A stretch of DNA of 64,000 bases. It comes from an uncultured Actinomycetes bacterium (lineage in GTDB: Bacteria > Actinomycetota > Thermoleophilia > Gaiellales > Gaiellaceae). The notes below the pieces were generated by a model. The model did not search any database. It was not told the DNA's origin and saw only the letters and a list, made by a program, of their open reading frames with translations. Position 1 is the first letter of the stretch, and every line of letters begins with the position of its first letter. The position numbers were made by a program, and so were the translations under genes. Positions 3 through 44,024 of the stretch are shown here, piece by piece. The stretch is taken from the NCBI GenBank assembly GCA_963698935.1, contig CAVOSU010000024.1:42952-106951 (forward strand), read 5' to 3'.

Positions 3-461
3 ATCCCGAAGGCCTCGCAGATCGCCGGCGCGAACGGCGGCATCGGGGCGGGCTTCCTCGGCGTCGGTGACACGTCGACGTCGAACACCGGCAACTTCGC
101 CTCGATGAACGTGACCACGGGCAAGCTGACGTGGCACCAGCACTGGGAGGCGCCCTGCTACAGCGGCTCGATGAACACGGCCTCCGGCCTCACGTTCATC
201 GGCCATCTGGGTCAGGGCAACGCCCAGGACGGCAAGGGGTACCTCGAGGCGGTGGACACGAAGACGGGCAAGTCCCTCTGGACGTCGCCGCTGATGACCG
301 CGCCGGTCGGCGCGGCGCCGGTGACCTACATGGTCGGCGGCAAGCAGTACGTGTCGGTCGCAGTCGGCGGGCAGTCGCACAACGACGTCTCCCGCCCGAA
401 GGGCCTGACGAACCCGGCCCGCCTGCGGGACGACAGCATCTACACGTTCGTCCTGCCCTAG
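3..461 (+). CDS. PQQ-dependent (quinoprotein) dehydrogenase, C-terminal fragment; 5' end outside window
   Basis: Frame is open from the window edge to TAG 459-461. Last propeller blades are present: SMNVTTGKLTW, LEAVDTKTGKSLW, GGKQYVSVAVGG. Paralog of 6698-9464. Confidence 0.8.
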   Translation: MPKASQIAGANGGIGAGFLGVGDTSTSNTGNFASMNVTTGKLTWHQHWEAPCYSGSMNTASGLTFIGHLGQGNAQDGKGYLEAVDTKTGKSLWTSPLMTAPVGAAPVTYMVGGKQYVSVAVGGQSHNDVSRPKGLTNPARLRDDSIYTFVLP

Positions 462-470
462 CAAGCCTCA

Positions 471-506
471 AGAGCGGGGCGGCGGCCATGGCCGCCGCCC
501 CGCTCT
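471..506 (+). terminator. GC-rich hairpin 10 nt after the stop codon, intrinsic-terminator-like
   Basis: AGAGCGGGGCGGCGGCC / GGCCGCCGCCCCGCTCT is a perfect 17-nt inverted repeat, followed by TTTGC. Confidence 0.55.
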
Positions 507-585
507 TTGCTCGTGCAAGGAACCAGCGCCCAGCCTGAGACGACGTCGCTAGGCTGGCCAAGGGTCAACTTTCGAGGAGGTATCG

Positions 586-1341
586 ATGCGTCGCGGAGTG
601 AGTGTGCTCGTGCTCTCGGCTCTGGCGCTGGGTGGGCTGGCTGCCGGCTTGCTCGCACCGGGCGGAGGCGCGACCGTGAGGAGTCCGGTGAAGACCCATA
701 CGGGTCGGTCGGCCAAGGTCACCAAGATCACCGTCACGGCGAAGGAGTTCAGCTTCAAGCTCTCGAAGCGCAAGGTGCCGAAGGGCACCGTGGTCTTCAC
801 GGTCCTGAACAAGGGGAAGATCTCCCACGACTTCAAGATCGCGGGCAAGAAGACGAAGACGCTGAACCCGGGCAAGAAGGCGACGCTGCGCGTCGTGTTC
901 AAGAAGAAGGGCCGGTTCGCGTACGTCTGCACGTTGCCCGGTCACGCCCGGCTCGGGATGAAGGGCGTGCTCGGCGTCGACGTGACACCGCCGAAGCCCG
1001 CGCCGCCGCCCCCGACGGGCACGACGACGACCACGCCGCCGCCCCCGCCGACCGGCACCGTCGGTACGGCGAACACGACCGTGACCGTCAACATGTTCGA
1101 GTACCGCTTCGACCTCTCGCAGGCGAGCGTCCCCTCGGGCCAGGTCACGTTCGTGATCACGAACAAGGGCCAGGAGGTCCACAACTGGGACGTCGTCGGA
1201 GTAAAGCACGGTGCCCTGCTCGCCCCCGGCCAGACGGAGACCTGGACGGTGTCGCTGCCGCCGAAGGGCTACACCGGCGTCTGCGACGTCCCGTTTCACG
1301 TCGAACGTGGCATGACCACGTCGGTCACCGTCACGCCCTGA
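586..1341 (+). CDS. secreted di-cupredoxin (two plastocyanin/azurin-like blue-copper domains joined by a Pro/Thr linker)
   Basis: GAGGAGG SD lies 5 nt upstream. A signal peptide is present. Two type-1 Cu ligand sets: SHDF...CTLPGHARLGM and VHNW...CDVPFHVERGM. Linker is PPKPAPPPPTGTTTTTPPPPPTG. Confidence 0.85.
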   Translation: MRRGVSVLVLSALALGGLAAGLLAPGGGATVRSPVKTHTGRSAKVTKITVTAKEFSFKLSKRKVPKGTVVFTVLNKGKISHDFKIAGKKTKTLNPGKKATLRVVFKKKGRFAYVCTLPGHARLGMKGVLGVDVTPPKPAPPPPTGTTTTTPPPPPTGTVGTANTTVTVNMFEYRFDLSQASVPSGQVTFVITNKGQEVHNWDVVGVKHGALLAPGQTETWTVSLPPKGYTGVCDVPFHVERGMTTSVTVTP

Positions 1342-16075: not shown

Positions 16076-16578
16076 CCGCGATCGCAGAGCAACCCGCTGT
16101 CGACCCGGGCTACCGTCACGTGCCGAAGCTGGCGCGCCCGGCGTCGAGCGTCGGGCTCGGGGAGGCCGTGCTCAAGTGGTACGACATCGCGCGGCCCGAG
16201 GACCCCGTGCCGGACGAGGTGCGTGCGCTCGCGCGGCGCGCTCTCGACGACGCCGCACGGCTCGGCGAGCTTCGGCTCGGCGACGCGCTGGGCTTCGTGA
16301 TCCTCCACCGCTGCGGGACGGAGGGGTTCCACTTCCTCCTCGTTGGCACGTGGCGCAACGACAACGAGCTCTGGGAGACGGTCTGGGCGAAGGACGACGA
16401 CGCCGACCCGGGCTTCCATCCTTGGGTCGTCGAGGATGGTCACCGGCCGACGTTCTGCGTGTGGGAGCTGGGCGTCGTGGCGCACGAGAGGCTCGCGTGG
16501 GCCGAGTACCTCGACTCGGGGCGCGACGCGGCCGCGCGACGCACCTACCTCGGGGACACGTTCGAGGGGCCGGTATGA
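16072..16578 (+). CDS. hypothetical protein, translationally coupled to 15578-16075
   Basis: ATGA overlap at 16072-16075. Non-repetitive, protein-like sequence with GC3-rich codons. Confidence 0.65.
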   Translation: MTAIAEQPAVDPGYRHVPKLARPASSVGLGEAVLKWYDIARPEDPVPDEVRALARRALDDAARLGELRLGDALGFVILHRCGTEGFHFLLVGTWRNDNELWETVWAKDDDADPGFHPWVVEDGHRPTFCVWELGVVAHERLAWAEYLDSGRDAAARRTYLGDTFEGPV

Positions 16579-16617
16579 GCCGCAGCCGGCTGACGCGGGC
16601 TCCTCCCGAGTCGAGCG

Positions 16618-16720
16618 GGGTTGCGGCCGCGAGAGCGGCCGCCTTCAGGGGTGTGCCCCGCCGAAGGCGGGGATCAAGCCGCGGGAATCCGCTCCCGCGG
16701 ATTCCCGCCTGGCGAGCAAG
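16618..16720 (-). repeat. three-hairpin intergenic repeat, copy A (only inverted copy)
   Basis: The reverse complement aligns end to end with copies at 26540, 27457, 27561, 30641 and 43866. H1 is GCGGGAATCCGC-GGGA-GCGGATTCCCGC. Confidence 0.9.
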
Positions 16721-26100: not shown

Positions 26101-26539
26101 GACGAAGCGCGGCGAGCCGATGGTGTTCCTCGCCCTCGACGATCCCACCGGCTCGGCCGAGGTGGTCGTGTTCAACTCGACGTACCAGGCTGCGCGTGAG
26201 CTCTGTGTAGCCGACCGGATCCTCGTCGTGAAGGGGCGGGTCGACCACAAACAGCAGGGAGAGACGAAGCTCGTGGCAATGGAGGTCTCTTCGTTCGAGG
26301 CGGTCATCGAGCGGACAGAGGTCCGTTTCGCGCTCGACGCGCGGGAGGCGCCGGCCGGCGTCATCCGCGAGCTCGCTCGTCTCGTCCGCGAGTTCCCAGG
26401 GGAGTCGCCCGTCTACCTGTCGCTCGACACCTCGGAGGGGCCGAAGACGTACGCGCTCGGACCGGAGTACCGTGTCCGGCCGGACGCGGACTTCCTCGCC
26501 GAAGCACGCTCGCTCCTCGGCGGCGCGTCGGTGCTCTGA
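23150..26539 (+). CDS. dnaE: DNA polymerase III alpha subunit
   Basis: PHP domain start FVHLHVHSEYSILDGA. Palm, fingers and OB domains present throughout. GTG 23150 chosen; the upstream 72 codons of the track ORF are not DnaE-like. Confidence 0.95.
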   Translation: MSAPFVHLHVHSEYSILDGACRIPALAEKAARLEMPAVSLTDHGSMAGAIDLYKAAQAQGVKPIFGCEVYVVDDRRVQKKGHAHLTLLAADTTGYANLVRLCSLAYLEGYYYKPRVDWELLERYAPGMIALSGCLSGRVSRALSEHREDDALAELDRLSQIFGRDSTYVELQNVGLDVQQPAFQGLPGLAERLGLPLVATGDVHYLDASDAHSHDALLCIQSGDSLKNPDRWRFGADEFYFKTPEEMSLDFPGHEEALRRSLEVAERCNVELELGRIRLPRFPVPDGRDAFEYLVELCERGLVKRYGSSTPELDDRLRFELKTIREMGFADYFLIVADFIGFAKGNGVSVGPGRGSAAGSLAAYCLEITDIDPMRYGLLFERFLNPARKDMPDMDIDFAVEGRERVINYVAEKYGRDRVAQIITFSKMAARAALRDAGRVLEIPYGVVDRIAKLVPEGPGQTLDEALKPGAELARAVADDPVAKEIVELARPLEGLTRADSIHAAGVVIGAEPLIDVVPLQQKGPGAEVVTQLSMKNVEALGLLKVDFLGLRNLDVIDKAVELVDGVDIGVIPLDDRKTYEMLARADAIGVFQFESSGMRDALRSVKPTEFEDLIALVALYRPGPMQYIPTYAARKNGREAVTYIDPRLAPITGDSYGICIYQEQYMQIAKQLAGFEPAEAETLRRAIGKKIHELMASLKGKFLDGCAANDVTPAVADQLWKDMESSQDYSFNKAHAACYALIAYRTAWLKANHPCEYMAALISSVMNTKDRVPFYVNACDEMGIDVLPPDVNSSAVDFAVVEGKIRFGLNAVKNVGETAAQRIVAARDEGGPFESIWDFTERVDPQVVNKRSLESLVKCGALDSTGASRMGMLAVLEQALGHGQKLAQDRLIGQSSLFDGAFDQGEPTATKHHPPVPQTEFTKDELLRLEKETLGLYVSEHPLSGVRDQLRRKTDASLAELERRRDGEVVTVGGIVTDTKQVTTKRGEPMVFLALDDPTGSAEVVVFNSTYQAARELCVADRILVVKGRVDHKQQGETKLVAMEVSSFEAVIERTEVRFALDAREAPAGVIRELARLVREFPGESPVYLSLDTSEGPKTYALGPEYRVRPDADFLAEARSLLGGASVL

Positions 26540-26641
26540 ATTGCTCGCCAGGCAGGAATCCGCTTGCGCGGATTCCTGCGGCTTGATCCCCGCCTGCGGC
26601 GGGGCACACCCTGAAGGCGTCGGCTGACGCCGCCGCAACTG
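26540..26641 (+). repeat. three-hairpin intergenic repeat, copy B
   Basis: Starts on the base after the dnaE TGA. H1 is GCAGGAATCCGC-TTGC-GCGGATTCCTGC, H2 is CCCCGCC-TGC-GGCGGGG, H3 is GGCGTC-GGCT-GACGCC, and it ends GCAACTG. Confidence 0.9.
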
Positions 26642-26662
26642 CCTGCCGGCCGGGCGGCAGCT

Positions 26663-26863
26663 CTACAGGAGGATTCGGAGCGCGAGATCGACCGGGCAGC
26701 CCTGCTCGAGCAGGGTGACGGCACGATGGAGGTCGACCTCGGGGGAGGCGGCGAGCACCGCGGCCGACTCGAGGTCGTACCCGGCGCGCTCGAGCGAAGC
26801 GAGTCGCCACTGCTCGACCCTGTCGACCTCGAACTCCAGCTCTGTGATGTGTGCCGTGGTCAT
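26663..26863 (-). CDS. small hypothetical protein (66 aa)
   Basis: GAGG 4 nt before ATG 26863. GC3-rich, non-repetitive sequence: MTTAHITELEFEVDRVEQWRLASLERAGYDL... Confidence 0.5.
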   Translation of the reverse strand: MTTAHITELEFEVDRVEQWRLASLERAGYDLESAAVLAASPEVDLHRAVTLLEQGCPVDLALRILL

Positions 26864-27006
26864 CTGCCTCTACCCCTGGAAACGACGATGCCTCGACCGG
26901 TATTCGGCACGAGGCGCTGATTGGTTCTCTCGTTCTACGCCACGGACGTCTGGGAAATGCATTCACCGCGTGAACATGCTGTTAAACCTCGGTGCCGAGG
27001 AGGCAC

Positions 27007-27036
27007 TTGCGGTGGCGGCCACGACACTCGTAGGAT
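27007..27036 (+). promoter_or_regulatory. sigma-70-like promoter of a leaderless mRNA
   Basis: TTGCGG, 18 nt, TAGGAT, 6 nt, ATG 27043. No SD. Confidence 0.55.
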
Positions 27037-27042
27037 CGTGCG

Positions 27043-27456
27043 ATGCTCCACAAGGACGCGAAGATCGAGCTCCTCCGGAACGTCCCGCTCTTCGCCGGAT
27101 GCTCGAAGGCGGAGCTCCAGCAGGTCGCGCAGCTGGCCGATGAGCTCGACCTCGCCGAGGGCGCGACGCTCATTCGCGAGGGAGAGCGTGGCCGAGAGTT
27201 CATCGTCGTCGCGGACGGCACGGTCGAGGTGACGCGCGGCGGGAAGATGCTGCGCGAGCTGGGCTCCGGTGACTTCATCGGAGAGATCGCGCTCGTCGTC
27301 GACCGCCCGCGGACGGCCACCGTGACCGCGACATCTCCCGTGCGCCTGCTCGTCGTCACCGACCGCGCGTTCAGCCGCCTGCTCGAGCAGGTGCCGTCGC
27401 TCTCGGTGAAGGTGATGCAGAGCCTCGGCGAGCGCCTGCACGCAGATGCGCTCTAA
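27043..27456 (+). CDS. stand-alone cyclic-nucleotide-binding domain protein
   Basis: LFAGCSKAEL...GDFIGEIALV...RTATVTA is the canonical cNMP phosphate-binding cassette. No output domain (137 aa). Confidence 0.9.
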   Translation: MLHKDAKIELLRNVPLFAGCSKAELQQVAQLADELDLAEGATLIREGERGREFIVVADGTVEVTRGGKMLRELGSGDFIGEIALVVDRPRTATVTATSPVRLLVVTDRAFSRLLEQVPSLSVKVMQSLGERLHADAL

Positions 27457-27558
27457 CTTGCTCGCGAAGCGGGATTCCGCGGGAGCGGAATCCCGCCGCT
27501 GATCCCCGCCTGCGGCGGGGCACATCCCTGAAGGCGCCCGCTGTCGCGGTCGCAACTG
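27457..27558 (+). repeat. three-hairpin intergenic repeat, copy C1 (tandem with C2)
   Basis: Starts on the base after TAA 27454-27456. H1 is GCGGGATTCCGC-GGGA-GCGGAATCCCGC. Confidence 0.9.
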
Positions 27559-27560
27559 AT

Positions 27561-27660
27561 CCTTCTCGCGAAGCAGGAATCCGCAGGAGCGGATTCCTGC
27601 CGCTGATCCCCGCCTGCGGCGGGCAGATCCCTGAAGGCGTCGGCTTCGCCGCCGCAACTG
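27561..27660 (+). repeat. three-hairpin intergenic repeat, copy C2
   Basis: Follows C1 after 2 nt. The TGA inside C1's AACTGAT precedes it. H1 is GCAGGAATCCGC-AGGA-GCGGATTCCTGC. Confidence 0.9.
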
Positions 27661-27674
27661 CCTCCTTGCCATGT

Positions 27675-27698
27675 GGTGTCCGACTTCAGTCGGACACC
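27675..27698. repeat. perfect 10-bp hairpin GGTGTCCGAC-TTCA-GTCGGACACC
   Basis: Seen directly. Its outer arms GGTGTC/GACACC are the same as the two palindromes at 37435 and 37534. Confidence 0.6.
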
Positions 27699-27748
27699 TG
27701 AACCGAGCTACACCGCCGTGAGACAACCGTAGGCAGAATGCGTCGGCG

Positions 27749-28633
27749 GTGAGCTTCCTCGCGTCGATCCCCTCGCCGAGCTCCGGCACCGTCGAGCTCG
27801 GGCCGATCACGGTGCACATGTACGGGCTCACGTTGCTCGTCGCGATCGCGGTGTGCACGTGGGTCACCGGGAAGCGCTGGGTGAACCGCGGCGGGGACTG
27901 GGACCTGATCTTCCGCTGCGCCGTCTGGGGCGTCGCGGCCGGGATCGTCGGCGCCCGCCTGTACCACGTGATCACGAGCTGGGACGAGGTGCCCGACACG
28001 TGGTGGGGGCCGTTCGCGATCTGGCGCGGCGGGCTCGGCGTGTGGGGCGGCATCGCGCTCGGCTGCCTCGTCGGCGGCATCGTCGCGAAGCGCGCAGGGG
28101 CCGACGTGTGGCTCCTCGCCGACTGCCTCGCGCCCGGGCTCCTGCTCGCCCAGGGAATCGGACGGCTCGGCAACTGGTGGAACCAGGAGCTCTTTGGCAA
28201 GCCGACCGACCTGCCCTGGGGCCTCGAGATCGACCCGGTCAACCGGCCGCTCGCCTATCTCGACTCGGCGACCTTCCACCCGACGTTCCTGTACGAGCTG
28301 ATCTGGGACTTCGCGGCCGCAGCCGTGCTGGTGTACCTCATCGAGCGCCGTCTCAAGCCCCGGCCGCCGGGCGTGTTCGCCGCATACATCGCCCTCTACT
28401 GCGTCGGGCGCTTCGGGGAGGAGCTCCTGCGGGTCGACCCCGCGCACCACATCGCCGGGTTGCGGCTCAATGCCTGGGTGTCGCTGATCGGGATCGTCGT
28501 CGGCGTGGCGTGGTACGTGCTCTCGCAGCGCGACCGGACGTCTGCTCGCCGCAGCAGAGGACGGACGAAGCCGACGAAGCCGACGCGGCGGATGGCCGTC
28601 CCGGGCGAGAGGCGCGTCCGACCGCCCGGCTAG
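27749..28633 (+). CDS. lgt: prolipoprotein diacylglyceryl transferase
   Basis: HMYGLTLLVAI..., GARLYHV, WRGGLGVWGG and GRLGNWWNQELFG are Lgt signatures. Confidence 0.95.
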   Translation: MSFLASIPSPSSGTVELGPITVHMYGLTLLVAIAVCTWVTGKRWVNRGGDWDLIFRCAVWGVAAGIVGARLYHVITSWDEVPDTWWGPFAIWRGGLGVWGGIALGCLVGGIVAKRAGADVWLLADCLAPGLLLAQGIGRLGNWWNQELFGKPTDLPWGLEIDPVNRPLAYLDSATFHPTFLYELIWDFAAAAVLVYLIERRLKPRPPGVFAAYIALYCVGRFGEELLRVDPAHHIAGLRLNAWVSLIGIVVGVAWYVLSQRDRTSARRSRGRTKPTKPTRRMAVPGERRVRPPG

Positions 28634-28636
28634 ATT
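28631..28636 (+). promoter_or_regulatory. -10 box for leaderless scpA (overlaps the lgt stop)
   Basis: TAGATT, 6 nt, GTG 28643. Confidence 0.4.
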
Positions 28637-28642
28637 CGCGCC

Positions 28643-29401
28643 GTGGCGTCGGCGGTTCGCGATCTCGAGCTGGACCTCGATGCGTTCGAGGGTCCGTTCG
28701 ACCTTCTCCTGACGCTTGTCCTCAAGGAGCAGCTCGAGCCTGCGGAGATCGACATCGCGGCGATCGTGATCGCCTTCGTCGAGCACCTGACCGCACGCGA
28801 CCGAATCGACCTCGACGCGTGCGGCGAGTTCCTCGTGCTCGTCGCCGCGCTGCTCGAGATCAAGGCGCGGCAGCTCTTCCCCGACGAGGGTGCAGAGCTG
28901 GCCGAGCTCGAGCCCGAGGAGGCGGCCGAGGAGCTCGCCCGACGACTGGCGGAGTACCGCCGGATGAAGGAGGCGGCGGGCTGGCTGCGCGAACGGCTCG
29001 CGGAGGAGCGCGACCGCTACTTCCGCCTCGCTCCGGCGCCGCTCGCCCCGCGCGCCGAGCGCCGGCTCGCCTCGCAGGATCCCGTCGCGCTCGCGACGGC
29101 GCTCGCAGGGTTGGCCGAGCCACCGCCGAAAGTGTCCCTCTCGCACATGGCTCTTCGCTTCCCTCCCGTCGCGCAGTTCCTGGAGCGCTTCCGCGCCGTC
29201 CTCCGGAGGCGCAGGGTGTTCGACTTCGACGGCGAGGTCGCGGGCCTCTCGCGGGTCGAGCAGGCCGTCGCGTTCCTCGCGCTCCTCGAGCTCACGAAGA
29301 GCGGCGAGGCGGCGCTCGCTCAGGCCGCGCCGTTCGCGCCGATCCGCGTCACCCGTCCCGAGAAGGAAAGGATTCCGCAGTGGACCGTCCGCTCCGCCTG
29401 A
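28643..29401 (+). CDS. scpA: segregation and condensation protein A
   Basis: LDLDAFEGPFDLLLTLVLKEQL kleisin N-terminus; 252 aa. Confidence 0.9.
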   Translation: MASAVRDLELDLDAFEGPFDLLLTLVLKEQLEPAEIDIAAIVIAFVEHLTARDRIDLDACGEFLVLVAALLEIKARQLFPDEGAELAELEPEEAAEELARRLAEYRRMKEAAGWLRERLAEERDRYFRLAPAPLAPRAERRLASQDPVALATALAGLAEPPPKVSLSHMALRFPPVAQFLERFRAVLRRRRVFDFDGEVAGLSRVEQAVAFLALLELTKSGEAALAQAAPFAPIRVTRPEKERIPQWTVRSA

Positions 29402-29997
29402 TCTCCCGAGACAGCATCGTCGAGAACCCGATCGACGCCCTCGCGCGCACGGTCGAGGCCCTGCTGGTCGTCGCGTCGCAGCCGCTCACGGTCGAGCAGC
29501 TTGTCGACGCGACCGAGGACGACGTCGAACGGATCGAGACCGCGCTCGGCCTGCTCTCGGAGCGGTATCGCGAGGGGCGGAGCGGCATCGTCCTGGAGCG
29601 GGCCGCCGGCGGGTACGCCTTCCGGGCGGCACGCGAGGCGGCGGAGGCGTGCGGCCGTCTGTTCGAGCAGCCGGTCGAGCGTGGGCTCTCGCAGGCGGCG
29701 CTCGAGACGCTGGCGATCGTCGCCTACATCGGCCCCGTCTCGCGCCCGGAGATCGCCCGGATCCGCGGCGTGGCGGCGGATTCGACCGTCGCGTCGCTCG
29801 TCGAACGAGGGCTCATCGCCGAGGCCGGCCGCGAGGCCGGGCCCGGCGGCGCGGTGCGCTACCGCGCGACGCCGCTCTTCGAGCGGGTGTTCGGGCTCGA
29901 CAGCCTCGCGGAGCTGCCGCGGCTCGACGACCTCGGCGCCGACGCCGAGGAGCTGCGCGAGCGGCTGCTCGAGGTCGCGGGCGCCCGCGCGTCCTAG
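29380..29997 (+). CDS. scpB: segregation and condensation protein B
   Basis: VEALLVVASQPLTVEQL and LSQAALETLAIVAYIGPVSRPEIARIRGV winged-helix motifs. GTG 29380 overlaps scpA by 22 nt; the start is uncertain. Confidence 0.85.
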   Translation: MDRPLRLISRDSIVENPIDALARTVEALLVVASQPLTVEQLVDATEDDVERIETALGLLSERYREGRSGIVLERAAGGYAFRAAREAAEACGRLFEQPVERGLSQAALETLAIVAYIGPVSRPEIARIRGVAADSTVASLVERGLIAEAGREAGPGGAVRYRATPLFERVFGLDSLAELPRLDDLGADAEELRERLLEVAGARAS

Positions 29998-30052
29998 GAT
30001 CCGCAGGGTCAGAAGCGCTTGTAACACACTGTTGCACGCGCCTTTCGACCCG

Positions 30053-30058
30053 TAGCAT
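30053..30058 (+). promoter_or_regulatory. -10 box, leaderless DJ-1/PfpI gene
   Basis: TAGCAT, 6 nt, GTG 30065. Confidence 0.45.
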
Positions 30059-30064
30059 CGCGGC

Positions 30065-30640
30065 GTGACGCGGATCGCGATCGTCCTGTTCGAGGGAGTC
30101 GAGGAGCTCGACTTCGCGGGGCCGTGGGAGGTGCTCGCGGCCTGGGCGACGCAGCATCCGGACGACGGCGTCACGGTCTTCACCGTCGCGGACACGACCG
30201 AGCTCCTGCGGTGCGCGAAGGGCCTCCGGGTCGCGGCCGACCACACGTGGGACACGGCGCCTCCCGCAGACGTGCTGCTCGTCCCCGGGGGCTCCGGGGT
30301 CAACGCGAAGCTCGAGGACGAGGCGTTCCTCGACCGGCTCCGCGCGTATTCCGGTCGCGGCGCGCTCGTGACGAGCGTGTGCACTGGCGCACTGGCTCTC
30401 GCCGCCGCCGGTCTCCTCCGCGACCGTCCGGCCACCACCTGGTGGGGACGGCTCGACCGGCTCGCCGAGCTCGAGCCGACCGTCGAGCTGCGACCCGACG
30501 ACCGGTTCGTGGACAGCGGCGAGATCGTCACTGCGGCGGGGGTGTCGGCCGGGATCGACATGGCCCTCCACCTCGTTGCGCGCCTCCACTCCCTCGAGCG
30601 CGCACGCGAGGTCCGCCGCTACATCCAATACGACCATTAG
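30065..30640 (+). CDS. DJ-1/PfpI family protein
   Basis: Nucleophile elbow TSVCTGALALAAAGLL; GATase1-like fold of 191 aa. Confidence 0.9.
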   Translation: MTRIAIVLFEGVEELDFAGPWEVLAAWATQHPDDGVTVFTVADTTELLRCAKGLRVAADHTWDTAPPADVLLVPGGSGVNAKLEDEAFLDRLRAYSGRGALVTSVCTGALALAAAGLLRDRPATTWWGRLDRLAELEPTVELRPDDRFVDSGEIVTAAGVSAGIDMALHLVARLHSLERAREVRRYIQYDH

Positions 30641-30744
30641 CCAGCTCGCGAAGCGGGATTCCGCAGGAGCGGAATCCCGCCGCTTGATCCCCGCCTGCGG
30701 CGGGGGCACACCCCTGAAGGCTCCCGCTTCGCGGTCGCAAACTG
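30641..30744 (+). repeat. three-hairpin intergenic repeat, copy D
   Basis: Starts on the base after TAG 30638-30640. H1 is GCGGGATTCCGC-AGGA-GCGGAATCCCGC. Confidence 0.9.
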
Positions 30745-30793
30745 CCGCGATCGCCGTCACGTCCGAGCCTGTTTGGCGGGGATACCTCCGGGG

Positions 30794-31999
30794 CTACAGC
30801 TGCCAGGCGCCCGCGCGCAGGAGCGGCACCGGCTCGCCGTCCCGCGTGATCCCGTCTACGTCGAGCTCGGGGGAGCCGATCATGAAGTCGACGTGGATGT
30901 CCGAGCGGTTCACCCGCGCGAGATCCTCGTCGGATTGCACGCCAAGGGTGTACCCGCTCCCGAGCGCGATGTGACTCGCCGCGTTCTCGTCGATCAGTGT
31001 CTCGTAGAAGACCGTGCCGAGCGGTCCGATCCGCCCCTCGCCGTCGACGAGCGCGAGCTCGCCGAGGAATGAGCCACCGTCGTCCTTCGCCGCGATCGCC
31101 CGCATTGCGTCCGCGCCGCGGTCGGCATCGATCCGCACTGCCCGCCCGCCTGCGAACTCGACCCGGATGCCGTCGATCAGGGCGCCGTACAGCTCGAGCG
31201 GGCGCGTCCCGGTCACGTGCCCGTCGACGCGCAAGGGATCCGGCGTCGTGAAGATCTCCTCGCTCGGGATGTTCGGGAAATGGCGGAGGCCGTCGATCGT
31301 CTCGAAGTCCGCGGCGTGCCAGATCGACGTCGGGAAGAGGCCGATCGTCACGTCGGTGCCGGCCCCGTACAGGCGGATTGCGTCGAAGCGCCGCTCCGTC
31401 AGTCGTGCCGCAATGGCTTCGAGCGTGCGCGCGCGCTCGCGCCAGGCCGCCTCGGGGTCCTCGCTGTCGAGCCGGCAGATGTACGCGATCTCCTCCCAGA
31501 GACGCTCATACGCAGCGTCCGCGGCGAGGTTTGGGTACACGAGCGCTCCCCACGCGGGCGTAGGAGCCGGGGCGACGCACCAGTTGGTGGTGCGCCGGTT
31601 GACGACGTCGCCCGTCTTCGGGAGATAGGGCAGGACGTCTTTTCCGGCCCGGGCGAGGTCGATCCCGTCGAGCGAGTCCGGGGCGGCCGGCCCGTTGAGC
31701 GTCACCCGGGCCGCGTGCTCGGAGGAGAGCCACTCGAGCCGGTCCTCGAGCCAGGGCGGGATGTACTCGAGCGTCGACTCGTCCGCGTGCGCGAGGCGCT
31801 GACGCTTGACCCAGGGATCGAATGTGATCACGTCGACCCAGCTCGCGCCGCGCTCGTAGGCCGCGCGCGCGACCTCGCGCGTGAGCGCCTCCTTGCCCGT
31901 GTACGTCGTGACCCCGACGATCTGGCCGGGCTGGACATTTGCGCCGTACCCGACGACGAGATCGGCGAGCCGGCGCGTGAGCTCGGCGTGGTCGGTCAC
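30794..31999 (-). CDS. M29-family aminopeptidase (AmpS/aminopeptidase T-like)
   Basis: LADLVVGYGANVQPGQIV...AAYERGASWVDV is an N-terminus typical of M29; 401 aa. Confidence 0.85.
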   Translation of the reverse strand: MTDHAELTRRLADLVVGYGANVQPGQIVGVTTYTGKEALTREVARAAYERGASWVDVITFDPWVKRQRLAHADESTLEYIPPWLEDRLEWLSSEHAARVTLNGPAAPDSLDGIDLARAGKDVLPYLPKTGDVVNRRTTNWCVAPAPTPAWGALVYPNLAADAAYERLWEEIAYICRLDSEDPEAAWRERARTLEAIAARLTERRFDAIRLYGAGTDVTIGLFPTSIWHAADFETIDGLRHFPNIPSEEIFTTPDPLRVDGHVTGTRPLELYGALIDGIRVEFAGGRAVRIDADRGADAMRAIAAKDDGGSFLGELALVDGEGRIGPLGTVFYETLIDENAASHIALGSGYTLGVQSDEDLARVNRSDIHVDFMIGSPELDVDGITRDGEPVPLLRAGAWQL

Positions 32000-42644: not shown

Positions 42645-43913
<1,269 letters not shown>

Positions 43914-44024
43914 TCCTCGCCTGCGGCGGGGCACATCCCTAAAGGCGGCGGCTTCGCCGCCGCAGAAGCGGCGTCCACTCGCGAGCAACTCGTTTCGTCC
44001 CGCGGACGCGCTGGAAGGGCTTTC

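Follow-up and report, generated by a model that had tools for sequence, protein, structure and literature searches.

What kind of genetic element begins on the first nucleotide past a stop codon, and does so at one gene after another? The question is raised by a 64,000-nucleotide (nt) stretch of contig CAVOSU010000024.1 from an uncultured Actinomycetes bacterium of the Gaiellaceae (hereafter the window), which holds six copies of a repeat of about 105 nt composed of three hairpins, several of them set against the stop codons of genes such as dnaE. A preliminary description, made from the letters of the window alone, named as candidates a structured element of the mRNA 3' untranslated region (UTR), a REP/BIME-like element and a non-autonomous mobile element. 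We find that the repeat is dispersed, oriented, docked at gene ends and subject to both turnover and local amplification, and that the boundary on which it docks is usually a stop codon and once the end of a tRNA gene, the element itself sometimes supplying the stop. It is probably an undescribed, non-autonomous family of palindromic intergenic repeats of Gaiella-like Thermoleophilia, docked at gene ends and akin to repetitive extragenic palindromes (REPs) and BIMEs.

A three-hairpin repeat docked at gene ends

All six copies are present where the preliminary description had placed them (Table 1). In this window of about 71% G+C, the palindrome of the first hairpin (H1) is matched six times against 0.03 expected and the core of the second (H2) six times against 0.31, and no shuffle gave six of either. 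Beyond the window, a search for exact matches to a 35-nt pattern that covers H2 and the 3' arm of H1 gave 64 loci (given below as L numbers), all from Gaiella sp. or 'uncultured Actinomycetes' soil metagenome-assembled genomes (MAGs) and representing about 25 assemblies; the closest relative of the window among them shares 90.6% identity over 6.9 kb. When a covariance model was built from the six window copies, as had been suggested, 86 copies scored above 70 bits, our threshold for a strong copy, within these loci. The family thus has many extragenic copies (6 in 64 kb; about 25 genomes), some at orthologous sites common to several species, with an uneven number of loci per genome that ranges from at least 10 in one MAG to one in a 3.28-Mb Gaiella contig. 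The earlier statement that this is not a described family still holds, since Rfam gave no match at gathering scores in the window and only chance-level matches at E<=10 over 26480-27720, while literature searches for Gaiella repeats and for literal sequence strings returned nothing relevant.

The unit measures about 105-115 nt and consists of three unlike palindromes and conserved linkers, in the order leader, H1 (12 bp and a 3-bp outer stem), linker, H2 (7 bp, loop TGC), linker, third hairpin (H3) and GCAACTG tail, the 3' end often running on to CTGCCTC(N)TTGCCA. The alignment and folding with both RNA and DNA parameters agree with this layout, essentially the one first proposed: RNAalifold on the alignment of six gives H1 of 3+12 bp, H2 of 7 bp and H3 of 3+4 bp, four pairs covarying already, and single copies take the same fold with either parameter set (z-scores -2.9 and -3.9). 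At the 5' boundary the proposal needs adjustment. The leader is present, but the hexamer CTTGCT, taken as the conserved start, is conserved at only 70-85%, so that the strongly conserved element begins at CGCSAAGC. In the consensus, H1 and H3 are unlike except for a CCGC-N4-GCGG tip. The apparent conservation of the H1-H2 stretch is inflated because the loci were ascertained on the exact H1-H2 pattern; the linker CACATCCCTGAAGGCG, which lies outside that pattern, is at least 95% conserved.

Docking onto stop codons, as claimed from the window alone, is a property of the family. Coding frames and gene ends were called from third-position G+C (GC3) periodicity rather than from annotation, and the sample consisted of the 53 copies whose 5' flank is coding and co-oriented, which reduce to 37 independent gene contexts. 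In 30 of these the stop codon ends within -4 to +4 nt of element base 1; in four the reading frame continues into the element, ending in the H1 loop or at the conserved linker TGA, and in the remaining three 18-56 nt lie between stop and element. Docked genes use all three stop codons, and 11 copies have a TAG or TGA stop formed from the element's own CTTGCT. The 5' flank contains no fixed word, the stop codon standing at a variable spacing of 0-4 nt, and this variation means that no reading frame is conserved. A selenocysteine insertion (SECIS) or read-through peptide signal was rejected on these grounds (all three stops, variable gap, no conserved frame).

The window itself illustrates both docking next to a stop and reading into the element. 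By Pfam, the upstream genes encode dnaE, a cNMP-binding protein, a DJ-1/PfpI protein and metK, and the first three open reading frames (ORFs) end at 26539 (DNA_pol3_alpha), 27456 (cNMP_binding) and 30640 (DJ-1_PfpI), one base before an element, exactly as had been described. The overlap noted at metK is likewise real: the ORF crosses H1 of copy 6 and runs to 43913, ending at the conserved H1-H2 linker TGA (43911-43913), so that the last ~15 metK residues are element-encoded; the same fusion occurs in the orthologue L006. The boundary need not be a stop codon at all, as at L013:591-900 an element lies 1 nt past the end of a tRNA-Pro gene (826-900, minus strand).

Among solo or first copies, 57 of 72 are co-oriented with the upstream gene and about 20% are not, whereas the downstream gene is co-oriented with the element in 39 cases and convergent in 32. 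Convergent spacers with solo copies show how one-sided the docking is, because there the 5' gap has a median of 0 (-4 to +2) and the 3' gap a median of 35, the former being smaller in 11 of 11. Two trivial accounts can be set aside. That all 3' hairpins dock in these compact genomes is ruled out by the generic hairpins of at least 7 bp, which lie 0-3 nt past the stop in 8 of 240 other genes, equal to the coding-DNA control; that spacers are simply tiny is unsupported, the empty convergent spacers having a median of 123 nt (n=15).

Table 1. Copies of the three-hairpin repeat and the adjoining REP2 hairpin in the window (scores from covariance model R1)
Feature	Coordinates	Coordinates as first described	Strand	Score (bits)	Remarks
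Copy 1	16614-16720	16618-16720	-	119.4	Full three-hairpin unit; undocked, antisense to both + strand neighbours; 3' end ~40 nt from stop at 16576-16578
Copy 2	26540-26646	26540-26641	+	119.7	First base directly after dnaE stop TGA 26537-26539; orthologue L017:1916-2026
Copy 3	27457-27560	27457-27558	+	126.6	First base directly after cNMP-binding gene stop TAA 27454-27456; first of tandem pair
Copy 3, H1	27464-27499		+		
Copy 3, H2	27504-27520		+		
Copy 3, H3	27534-27553		+		
Copy 4	27561-27672	27561-27660	+		Second of tandem pair, 3' tail CTGCCTCCTTGCCA included; masked in covariance-model results by overlap with copy 3
Copy 5	30641-30748	30641-30744	+	119.9	First base directly after DJ-1/PfpI stop TAG 30638-30640
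Copy 6	43866-43968	43866-43968	+	116.1	Fused to metK end
REP2	27675-27698				Perfect 24-nt hairpin GGTGTCCGACT-TC-AGTCGGACACC, directly after tandem pair

Beside copy 2, the window carries a 67-aa ORF without a Pfam match (26665-26866, minus strand) that is convergent with dnaE; a distance of ~23 nt separates its stop from the copy's 3' end, and the spacer holds a small GC palindrome.

Gain, loss and local amplification of copies

Comparison of orthologous sites reveals that copies come and go. The DJ-1 site is filled in the window and empty in L050, which has, one gene upstream, a copy missing from the window; elsewhere, L031 is filled and L019 and L034 are empty, and L042 is filled and L032 empty. 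In L031 and L042 the junctions fall at the old stop codon, with a small native palindrome displaced or split. At one convergent gene pair the element of L010 sits on gene A, and those of L032 and L042 sit the other way round on gene B; opposite orientations in a single convergent spacer point to independent insertions.

A series of 80 metagenomic DJ-1 orthologues, in which the C-terminus ...YDPEPPV* is widely conserved, shows the different outcomes at one gene end. The site is empty in about 15 orthologues; most of the more distant ones examined lack the element there. L068 and L069 retain the ancestral C-terminus and carry the element 0-1 nt past the old TGA, a full one in L069 (1 nt past). 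The element of L068 (1674-1736) sits on the ancestral stop and has an internal deletion that joins the leader AGCTTGCTCGCGAAG to H3 at a repeated GAAG, H1 and H2 thus having been lost by microhomology deletion. In the window, L066 and L067, a truncated ...YDH* is followed by the element, and apparent old DJ-1 C-terminal codons lie 3' of the window copy, suggesting an insertion inside the coding end with a new stop at the junction. Gains at this locus, apparently more than one, are thus all docked.

Other arrangements were met at the same gene and elsewhere. The DJ-1 3' ends of L072, L075, L081 and L082 are compact junctions whose convergent stops overlap or abut (CTAG, TAGCTA). In the more distant orthologues L077, L079 and L085, other hairpin repeats, for example GGTCTGGCC-TTCC-GGCCAGACC and GGGGTCAGACC-TTC-GGGTCTGACCCC, stand 0-2 nt past the same stop, and docking at stops may be common to the REP-like repeats of the Gaiella-like group. 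At L063:4811-4951, a 142-nt insertion separates two genes; in L003 and L037, close relatives, the stop of one overlaps the start of the other. The insertion was considered as a family member and is unrelated.

Local amplification takes the form of head-to-tail tandem duplications that carry 17-28 nt of gene end, tRNA end or 3' flank, as in L013, where the second unit of the array bears a 17-nt copy of the tRNA-Pro 3' end. A CRISPR can be discounted, as the units are 105 nt long and the 'spacers' are duplicated flank. Outside the arrays, the longest word common to the 5' and 3' flanks of solo copies is no better than in the permuted control, which bears out the earlier statement that there are no target duplications; an inverted-repeat scan of the window copies did not detect any terminal inverted repeats, and the element's 3' end is not flanked by TA.

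These termini bear on the proposal that the family is a miniature inverted-repeat transposable element (MITE) from a DDE transposon with a stop-like target (TA, CTAG or TNA; IS630 or IS5 relatives), docking then arising because a genome of 71% GC would retain such targets mostly at stop codons. The size of the unit fits, some copies have termini resembling CAG...CTG, and in the consensus of one H3 subfamily only, CGCGAAGCGG of the leader and CCGCTTCGCG of H3 show partial complementarity. TAG shows a weak enrichment at docked genes (54% versus 38%, p=0.07), and the 11 docked copies mentioned above use a TAG or TGA inside the element's own 5' end. A MITE would nevertheless be very improbable, given the lack of target duplications above the control, of a 3' TA and, in the scan of the window copies, of terminal inverted repeats, the varying 0-4-nt spacing to the stop and the copy docked at the end of a tRNA gene; nor was a parent element seen.

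Filled and empty sites, local tandem duplication, and the absence of target duplications and of convincing terminal inverted repeats are the grounds on which we prefer a REP/BIME-like, non-autonomous family. The constraint on the copies can also be gauged. Orthologous copies are 89% identical, the upstream 300 nt of coding DNA 85%, and non-orthologous copies across species 85%, values implying that a consensus is being held, by selection, conversion or turnover. Such maintenance across species resembles that of REPIN populations, which persist over long periods (PMC8049555).

As to how the docking came about, both targeted insertion and selection after insertion stand. Under the second, copies would land anywhere near gene ends, and deletion bias together with selection would trim the spacer back to the last base under constraint or keep those insertions that preserve or create a stop. 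Boundaries that include both stops and a tRNA end would suit this course of events, as would the relatives whose convergent genes have stops 0-10 nt apart or overlapping, the many copies old enough to be common to several species, and the apparent old DJ-1 codons 3' of the window copy. It is harder to reconcile with 5' gaps of 0 beside 3' gaps of 20-70 nt in the same spacers (11/11), with antisense copies that are not docked by their 3' ends, with empty convergent spacers that are not generally tiny, and with independent gains at one locus that are all docked. We regard survivorship of this kind as possible, though on balance doubtful. The complete 5'/3' asymmetry and the uniformly docked gains lean to targeting, while the tRNA-end docking, and a DJ-1 copy apparently inserted within the coding end, lean to a boundary drawn by selection.

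Paired changes between hairpin arms

The compensated H1 pairs reported from the window, A:T/T:A and G:C/A:T (the latter in the copies at 26540 and 27561), are both present in the alignment, and H3 of the window copies adds a C:G/G:C swap. Across the family, in an alignment fitted to the covariance model, pairing is kept in 98.8% of cells (90 distinct rows) versus 34-57% when the partners are slid, and double changes occur at 20 of 29 pairs; shuffling never attained these values. Among the five common polymorphic pairs, 41 combinations (haplotypes) are seen, with all four gametes for every pair of pairs; where orthologous copies differ, both partners of a pair have changed, save for one G·T intermediate in L034.

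The preliminary description had taken such changes as structure conserved beyond sequence; that this structure is one of RNA is not upheld by the larger alignment. G·T and A·C mismatches are about equally frequent (22 versus 18), and transversion swaps (G:C/C:G or A:T/T:A), for which no wobble intermediate exists, account for four of the five polymorphic pairs. Co-orientation with the upstream gene is missing in about 20% of solo or first copies, and copies that are antisense or in divergent contexts score as high as sense copies. Together, the near equality of G·T and A·C, the transversion swaps and the intact antisense copies fit maintenance of a DNA palindrome. A process that yields such paired changes is established, namely the template-switch correction of imperfect palindromes during replication (PMC7202029). 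The covariation therefore is no proof of RNA structure and fits DNA-palindrome maintenance at least as well, which is a caution for covariation-based RNA discovery, as the plentiful 'compensatory' changes here bear the signature of a DNA palindrome and not that of an RNA.

The same data weigh on whether the unit is in the first place a selected cis-acting RNA element, whose fold works as a terminator without a U tract, a stabiliser or a sensor of translation termination, and whose spread is secondary. Several observations would be expected of such an element: the prevailing co-orientation with the upstream gene (57/72), the nucleotide-precise docking, unpaired linkers that are at least 95% conserved outside the ascertainment pattern, copies conserved like coding DNA, and double changes that preserve pairing, also where orthologous copies are compared (L034 holding a G·T intermediate). 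Against it stand the mismatch balance, the transversion swaps and the equal scores of antisense and divergent-context copies, and in addition docking is impossible for internal units of a tandem array, housekeeping genes have the element in some genomes and lack it in others, the element is not followed by a U tract, and Rfam has no matching family. A primary RNA function is, in our judgement, unlikely. Among the candidates first put forward, the REP/BIME-like or non-autonomous repeat is favoured by the filled and empty sites, the insertions in opposite orientation, the tandem duplications and the spread over about 25 genomes, and the 3'-UTR RNA is the less favoured one.

Related systems, a RAYT-like gene and the origin of docking

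Directly after the tandem pair, the window contains a second and distinct repeat, which we call REP2, a family of perfect 24-25-nt hairpins of the form GGTGYCYGRC-loop-GYCRGRCACC. Further copies were found at L006:4559, L010:7415, L017:367, L024:435 and 1151, L029:3970, L049:6027 and 6083, and L052:3598. About half of the REP2 copies lie no more than 70 nt 3' of a three-hairpin element, and that of L017 starts 3 nt past a stop codon. L017 also has a 144-aa gene (394-828, minus strand) between the element pair and REP2, with no counterpart at 27660-27675 of the window, and hence a gene-sized indel bounded by both repeat types. This gene was considered as a transposase and rejected, the protein presumably being of the glyoxalase/VOC type from the look of its N-terminal sequence.

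REPs are associated with RAYT transposases, and the earlier suggestion to look for a RAYT gene elsewhere was followed by tblastn with E. coli RayT and the protein of L024 on ~0.56 Mb of DNA including the window. E. coli RayT gave one weak match, which led to a 262-aa ORF at L024:375-1163 (plus strand) with HUH-like and Y..NPV motifs (NCBIfam REP_Tyr_transpos, E=3e-13; Pfam Y1_Tnp, E=8e-4; both below curated cut-offs). This putative gene is flanked by inverted REP2 hairpins (435-458 and 1151-1174; GGTGCCTGGC-TTCA-GCCAGGCACC), and by its sequence features is a candidate for the classic RAYT/REP arrangement in Gaiella-like genomes. A three-hairpin copy lies 60 nt upstream of it, on one side only, and the gene is absent from the orthologue L038. 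A RAYT flanked by the three-hairpin element can thus be rejected for the sole match in the searched DNA, and no enzyme can be assigned to the three-hairpin element, since the gene in L024 has REP2 at its flanks. The two tblastn queries found no RAYT-type gene in the window, whose ORFs were not all screened; to that extent the remark that no transposase lies nearby is borne out.

How, then, does the family compare with described repeats? It resembles REPs, BIMEs and the REPIN-RAYT system in being made of extragenic GC-rich palindromes at gene 3' ends, in lacking target duplications, in forming clusters and persisting across species, and in that a RAYT-like gene exists in the lineage. It departs from them in being a fixed trio of unlike hairpins of ~105 nt, where a REP is a single palindrome of 20-40 nt with a conserved 5' tetranucleotide, and in its far tighter docking (30/37 contexts within 4 nt). 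Neighbouring copies are arranged head-to-tail on one strand and not as the inverted doublets of REPINs; BIME units alternate with set linker motifs, whereas here the arrays are direct tandem duplications that include flanking DNA; and cognate REPs flank their RAYT gene in inverted orientation, a position occupied in L024 by REP2.

Pneumococcal BOX (boxA-B-C), rhizobial RIME and enterobacterial ERIC/IRU are modular intergenic repeats whose units of ~100-130 nt comprise several palindromic modules. The present family is like them in size, in its several palindromic modules, in its intergenic position and presumed co-transcription with neighbours, and in a variable number of modules, given that H3-like modules are duplicated in some elements and H1-H2 is deleted in L068. 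It has no sequence relationship to them, belongs to another phylum, and shows a strict 5' docking and orientation that are not defining traits there. A parallel for precision comes from the mycobacterial interspersed repetitive unit (MIRU), an actinobacterial repeat that is inserted with nucleotide precision at a gene boundary and oriented with transcription, the insertion being nearly harmless (PMC12548453). MIRU, however, sits on start codons by means of an internal ORF with a -4 overlap and translational coupling, while our family sits on stop codons without a consistent frame (gap 0-4 nt) and is dominated by palindromes. PATEs, which derive from IS200/IS605, share the subterminal hairpins near both ends, the lack of convincing terminal inverted repeats and of target duplications, and an orientation-specific insertion such as is expected of single-strand transposition; the present repeat differs in having no constant 4-5-nt word 5' of the element and unlike left and right hairpins, and no TnpA with matching ends was found.

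Two further classes were weighed. An integron attC site is rejected because the element has three separate hairpins where attC has one long imperfect hairpin, its CTTGCT/GCAACTG termini do not fit the RYYYAAC/GTTRRRY core sites, and the upstream genes are dnaE, metK and other housekeeping genes, not the cassette genes of an array beside intI. A canonical intrinsic terminator is not seen, as no T run follows H3 and a terminator scan called none at the copies within 26300-31000. Clusters of two or three adjacent hairpins no more than 80 nt from a stop can terminate transcription without a U tract (Gupta & Pal 2021, PMC8355165), and the element resembles them in layout, but those clusters are locus-specific sequences, whereas ours is a dispersed, conserved repeat. 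Since some of the tested defining features are missing in each case, the family belongs to none of the REP/REPIN, BIME, MITE, PATE, attC or canonical terminator classes.

Several points speak against calling it REP/BIME-like. Defining features of REP/REPIN, BIME and MITE are missing, and within ~0.56 Mb a single RAYT-like gene was found, which has REP2 at its flanks and scores below curated cut-offs. The filled/empty comparisons are all between genomes of ~75-90% identity, and none of them shows a fresh insertion with clean junctions. Gene ends rest on GC3 periodicity, the exact-pattern ascertainment overstates the conservation of the H1 3' arm and H2, and no U tract follows H3.

If the family is nonetheless of this REP/BIME-like kind, its biology could be envisaged as follows. 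First, the hairpins would be maintained as DNA palindromes, through template-switch correction and/or recognition of the single-stranded hairpin by an HUH (RAYT-type) enzyme. Second, docked copies would be co-transcribed as the start of the mRNA 3' UTR, where the three stem-loops (predicted fold energy -55 kcal/mol) might act as a cluster that blocks 3' exonucleases or, by analogy with the clusters described above, terminates transcription without a U tract. Finally, with gaps of 0-4 nt, the outer stem of H1 would start 6-10 nt and its main stem 12-16 nt past the stop, so that a terminating ribosome would have to abut or partly melt H1. PMC12306157 places many E. coli REPs 1-20 nt from a stop and states that those less than 16 nt away stall ribosomes and lower translation of the upstream gene (Liang et al. 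2015, as cited there); the spacing of H1 matches this range, and by analogy docked copies might likewise stall terminating ribosomes and reduce expression of the gene upstream.

A bolder reading is that the repeat seeks gene ends, the docking being made by the insertion mechanism itself, or that the host has domesticated the family as a genome-wide 3'-end module. In the former case, placement would be strand-specific and fall on the bases that immediately follow a translated or processed gene, and an HUH/RAYT-type single-strand enzyme might use the non-template strand exposed in the R-loop of the nascent RNA where the ribosome stops; in the latter, the module would couple translation termination to mRNA fate. 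We consider either distinctly unlikely. To our knowledge, the reason why REP-type repeats lie near stop codons in E. coli has not been explained, and a gene-end-seeking mechanism, if true, could explain the clustering of REPs just past stop codons in general.

In summary, the class of repeat is a familiar one, and what is unusual is how cleanly this family docks. It displays the stop-proximity effect in an extreme form, with 30 of 37 contexts docked, a fixed orientation and one copy at a tRNA end, and this clean docking makes it a good system for asking whether targeting or selection places such repeats. Together with the candidate RAYT/REP pair of L024, it is the first repeat family described for the poorly studied Gaiellales.

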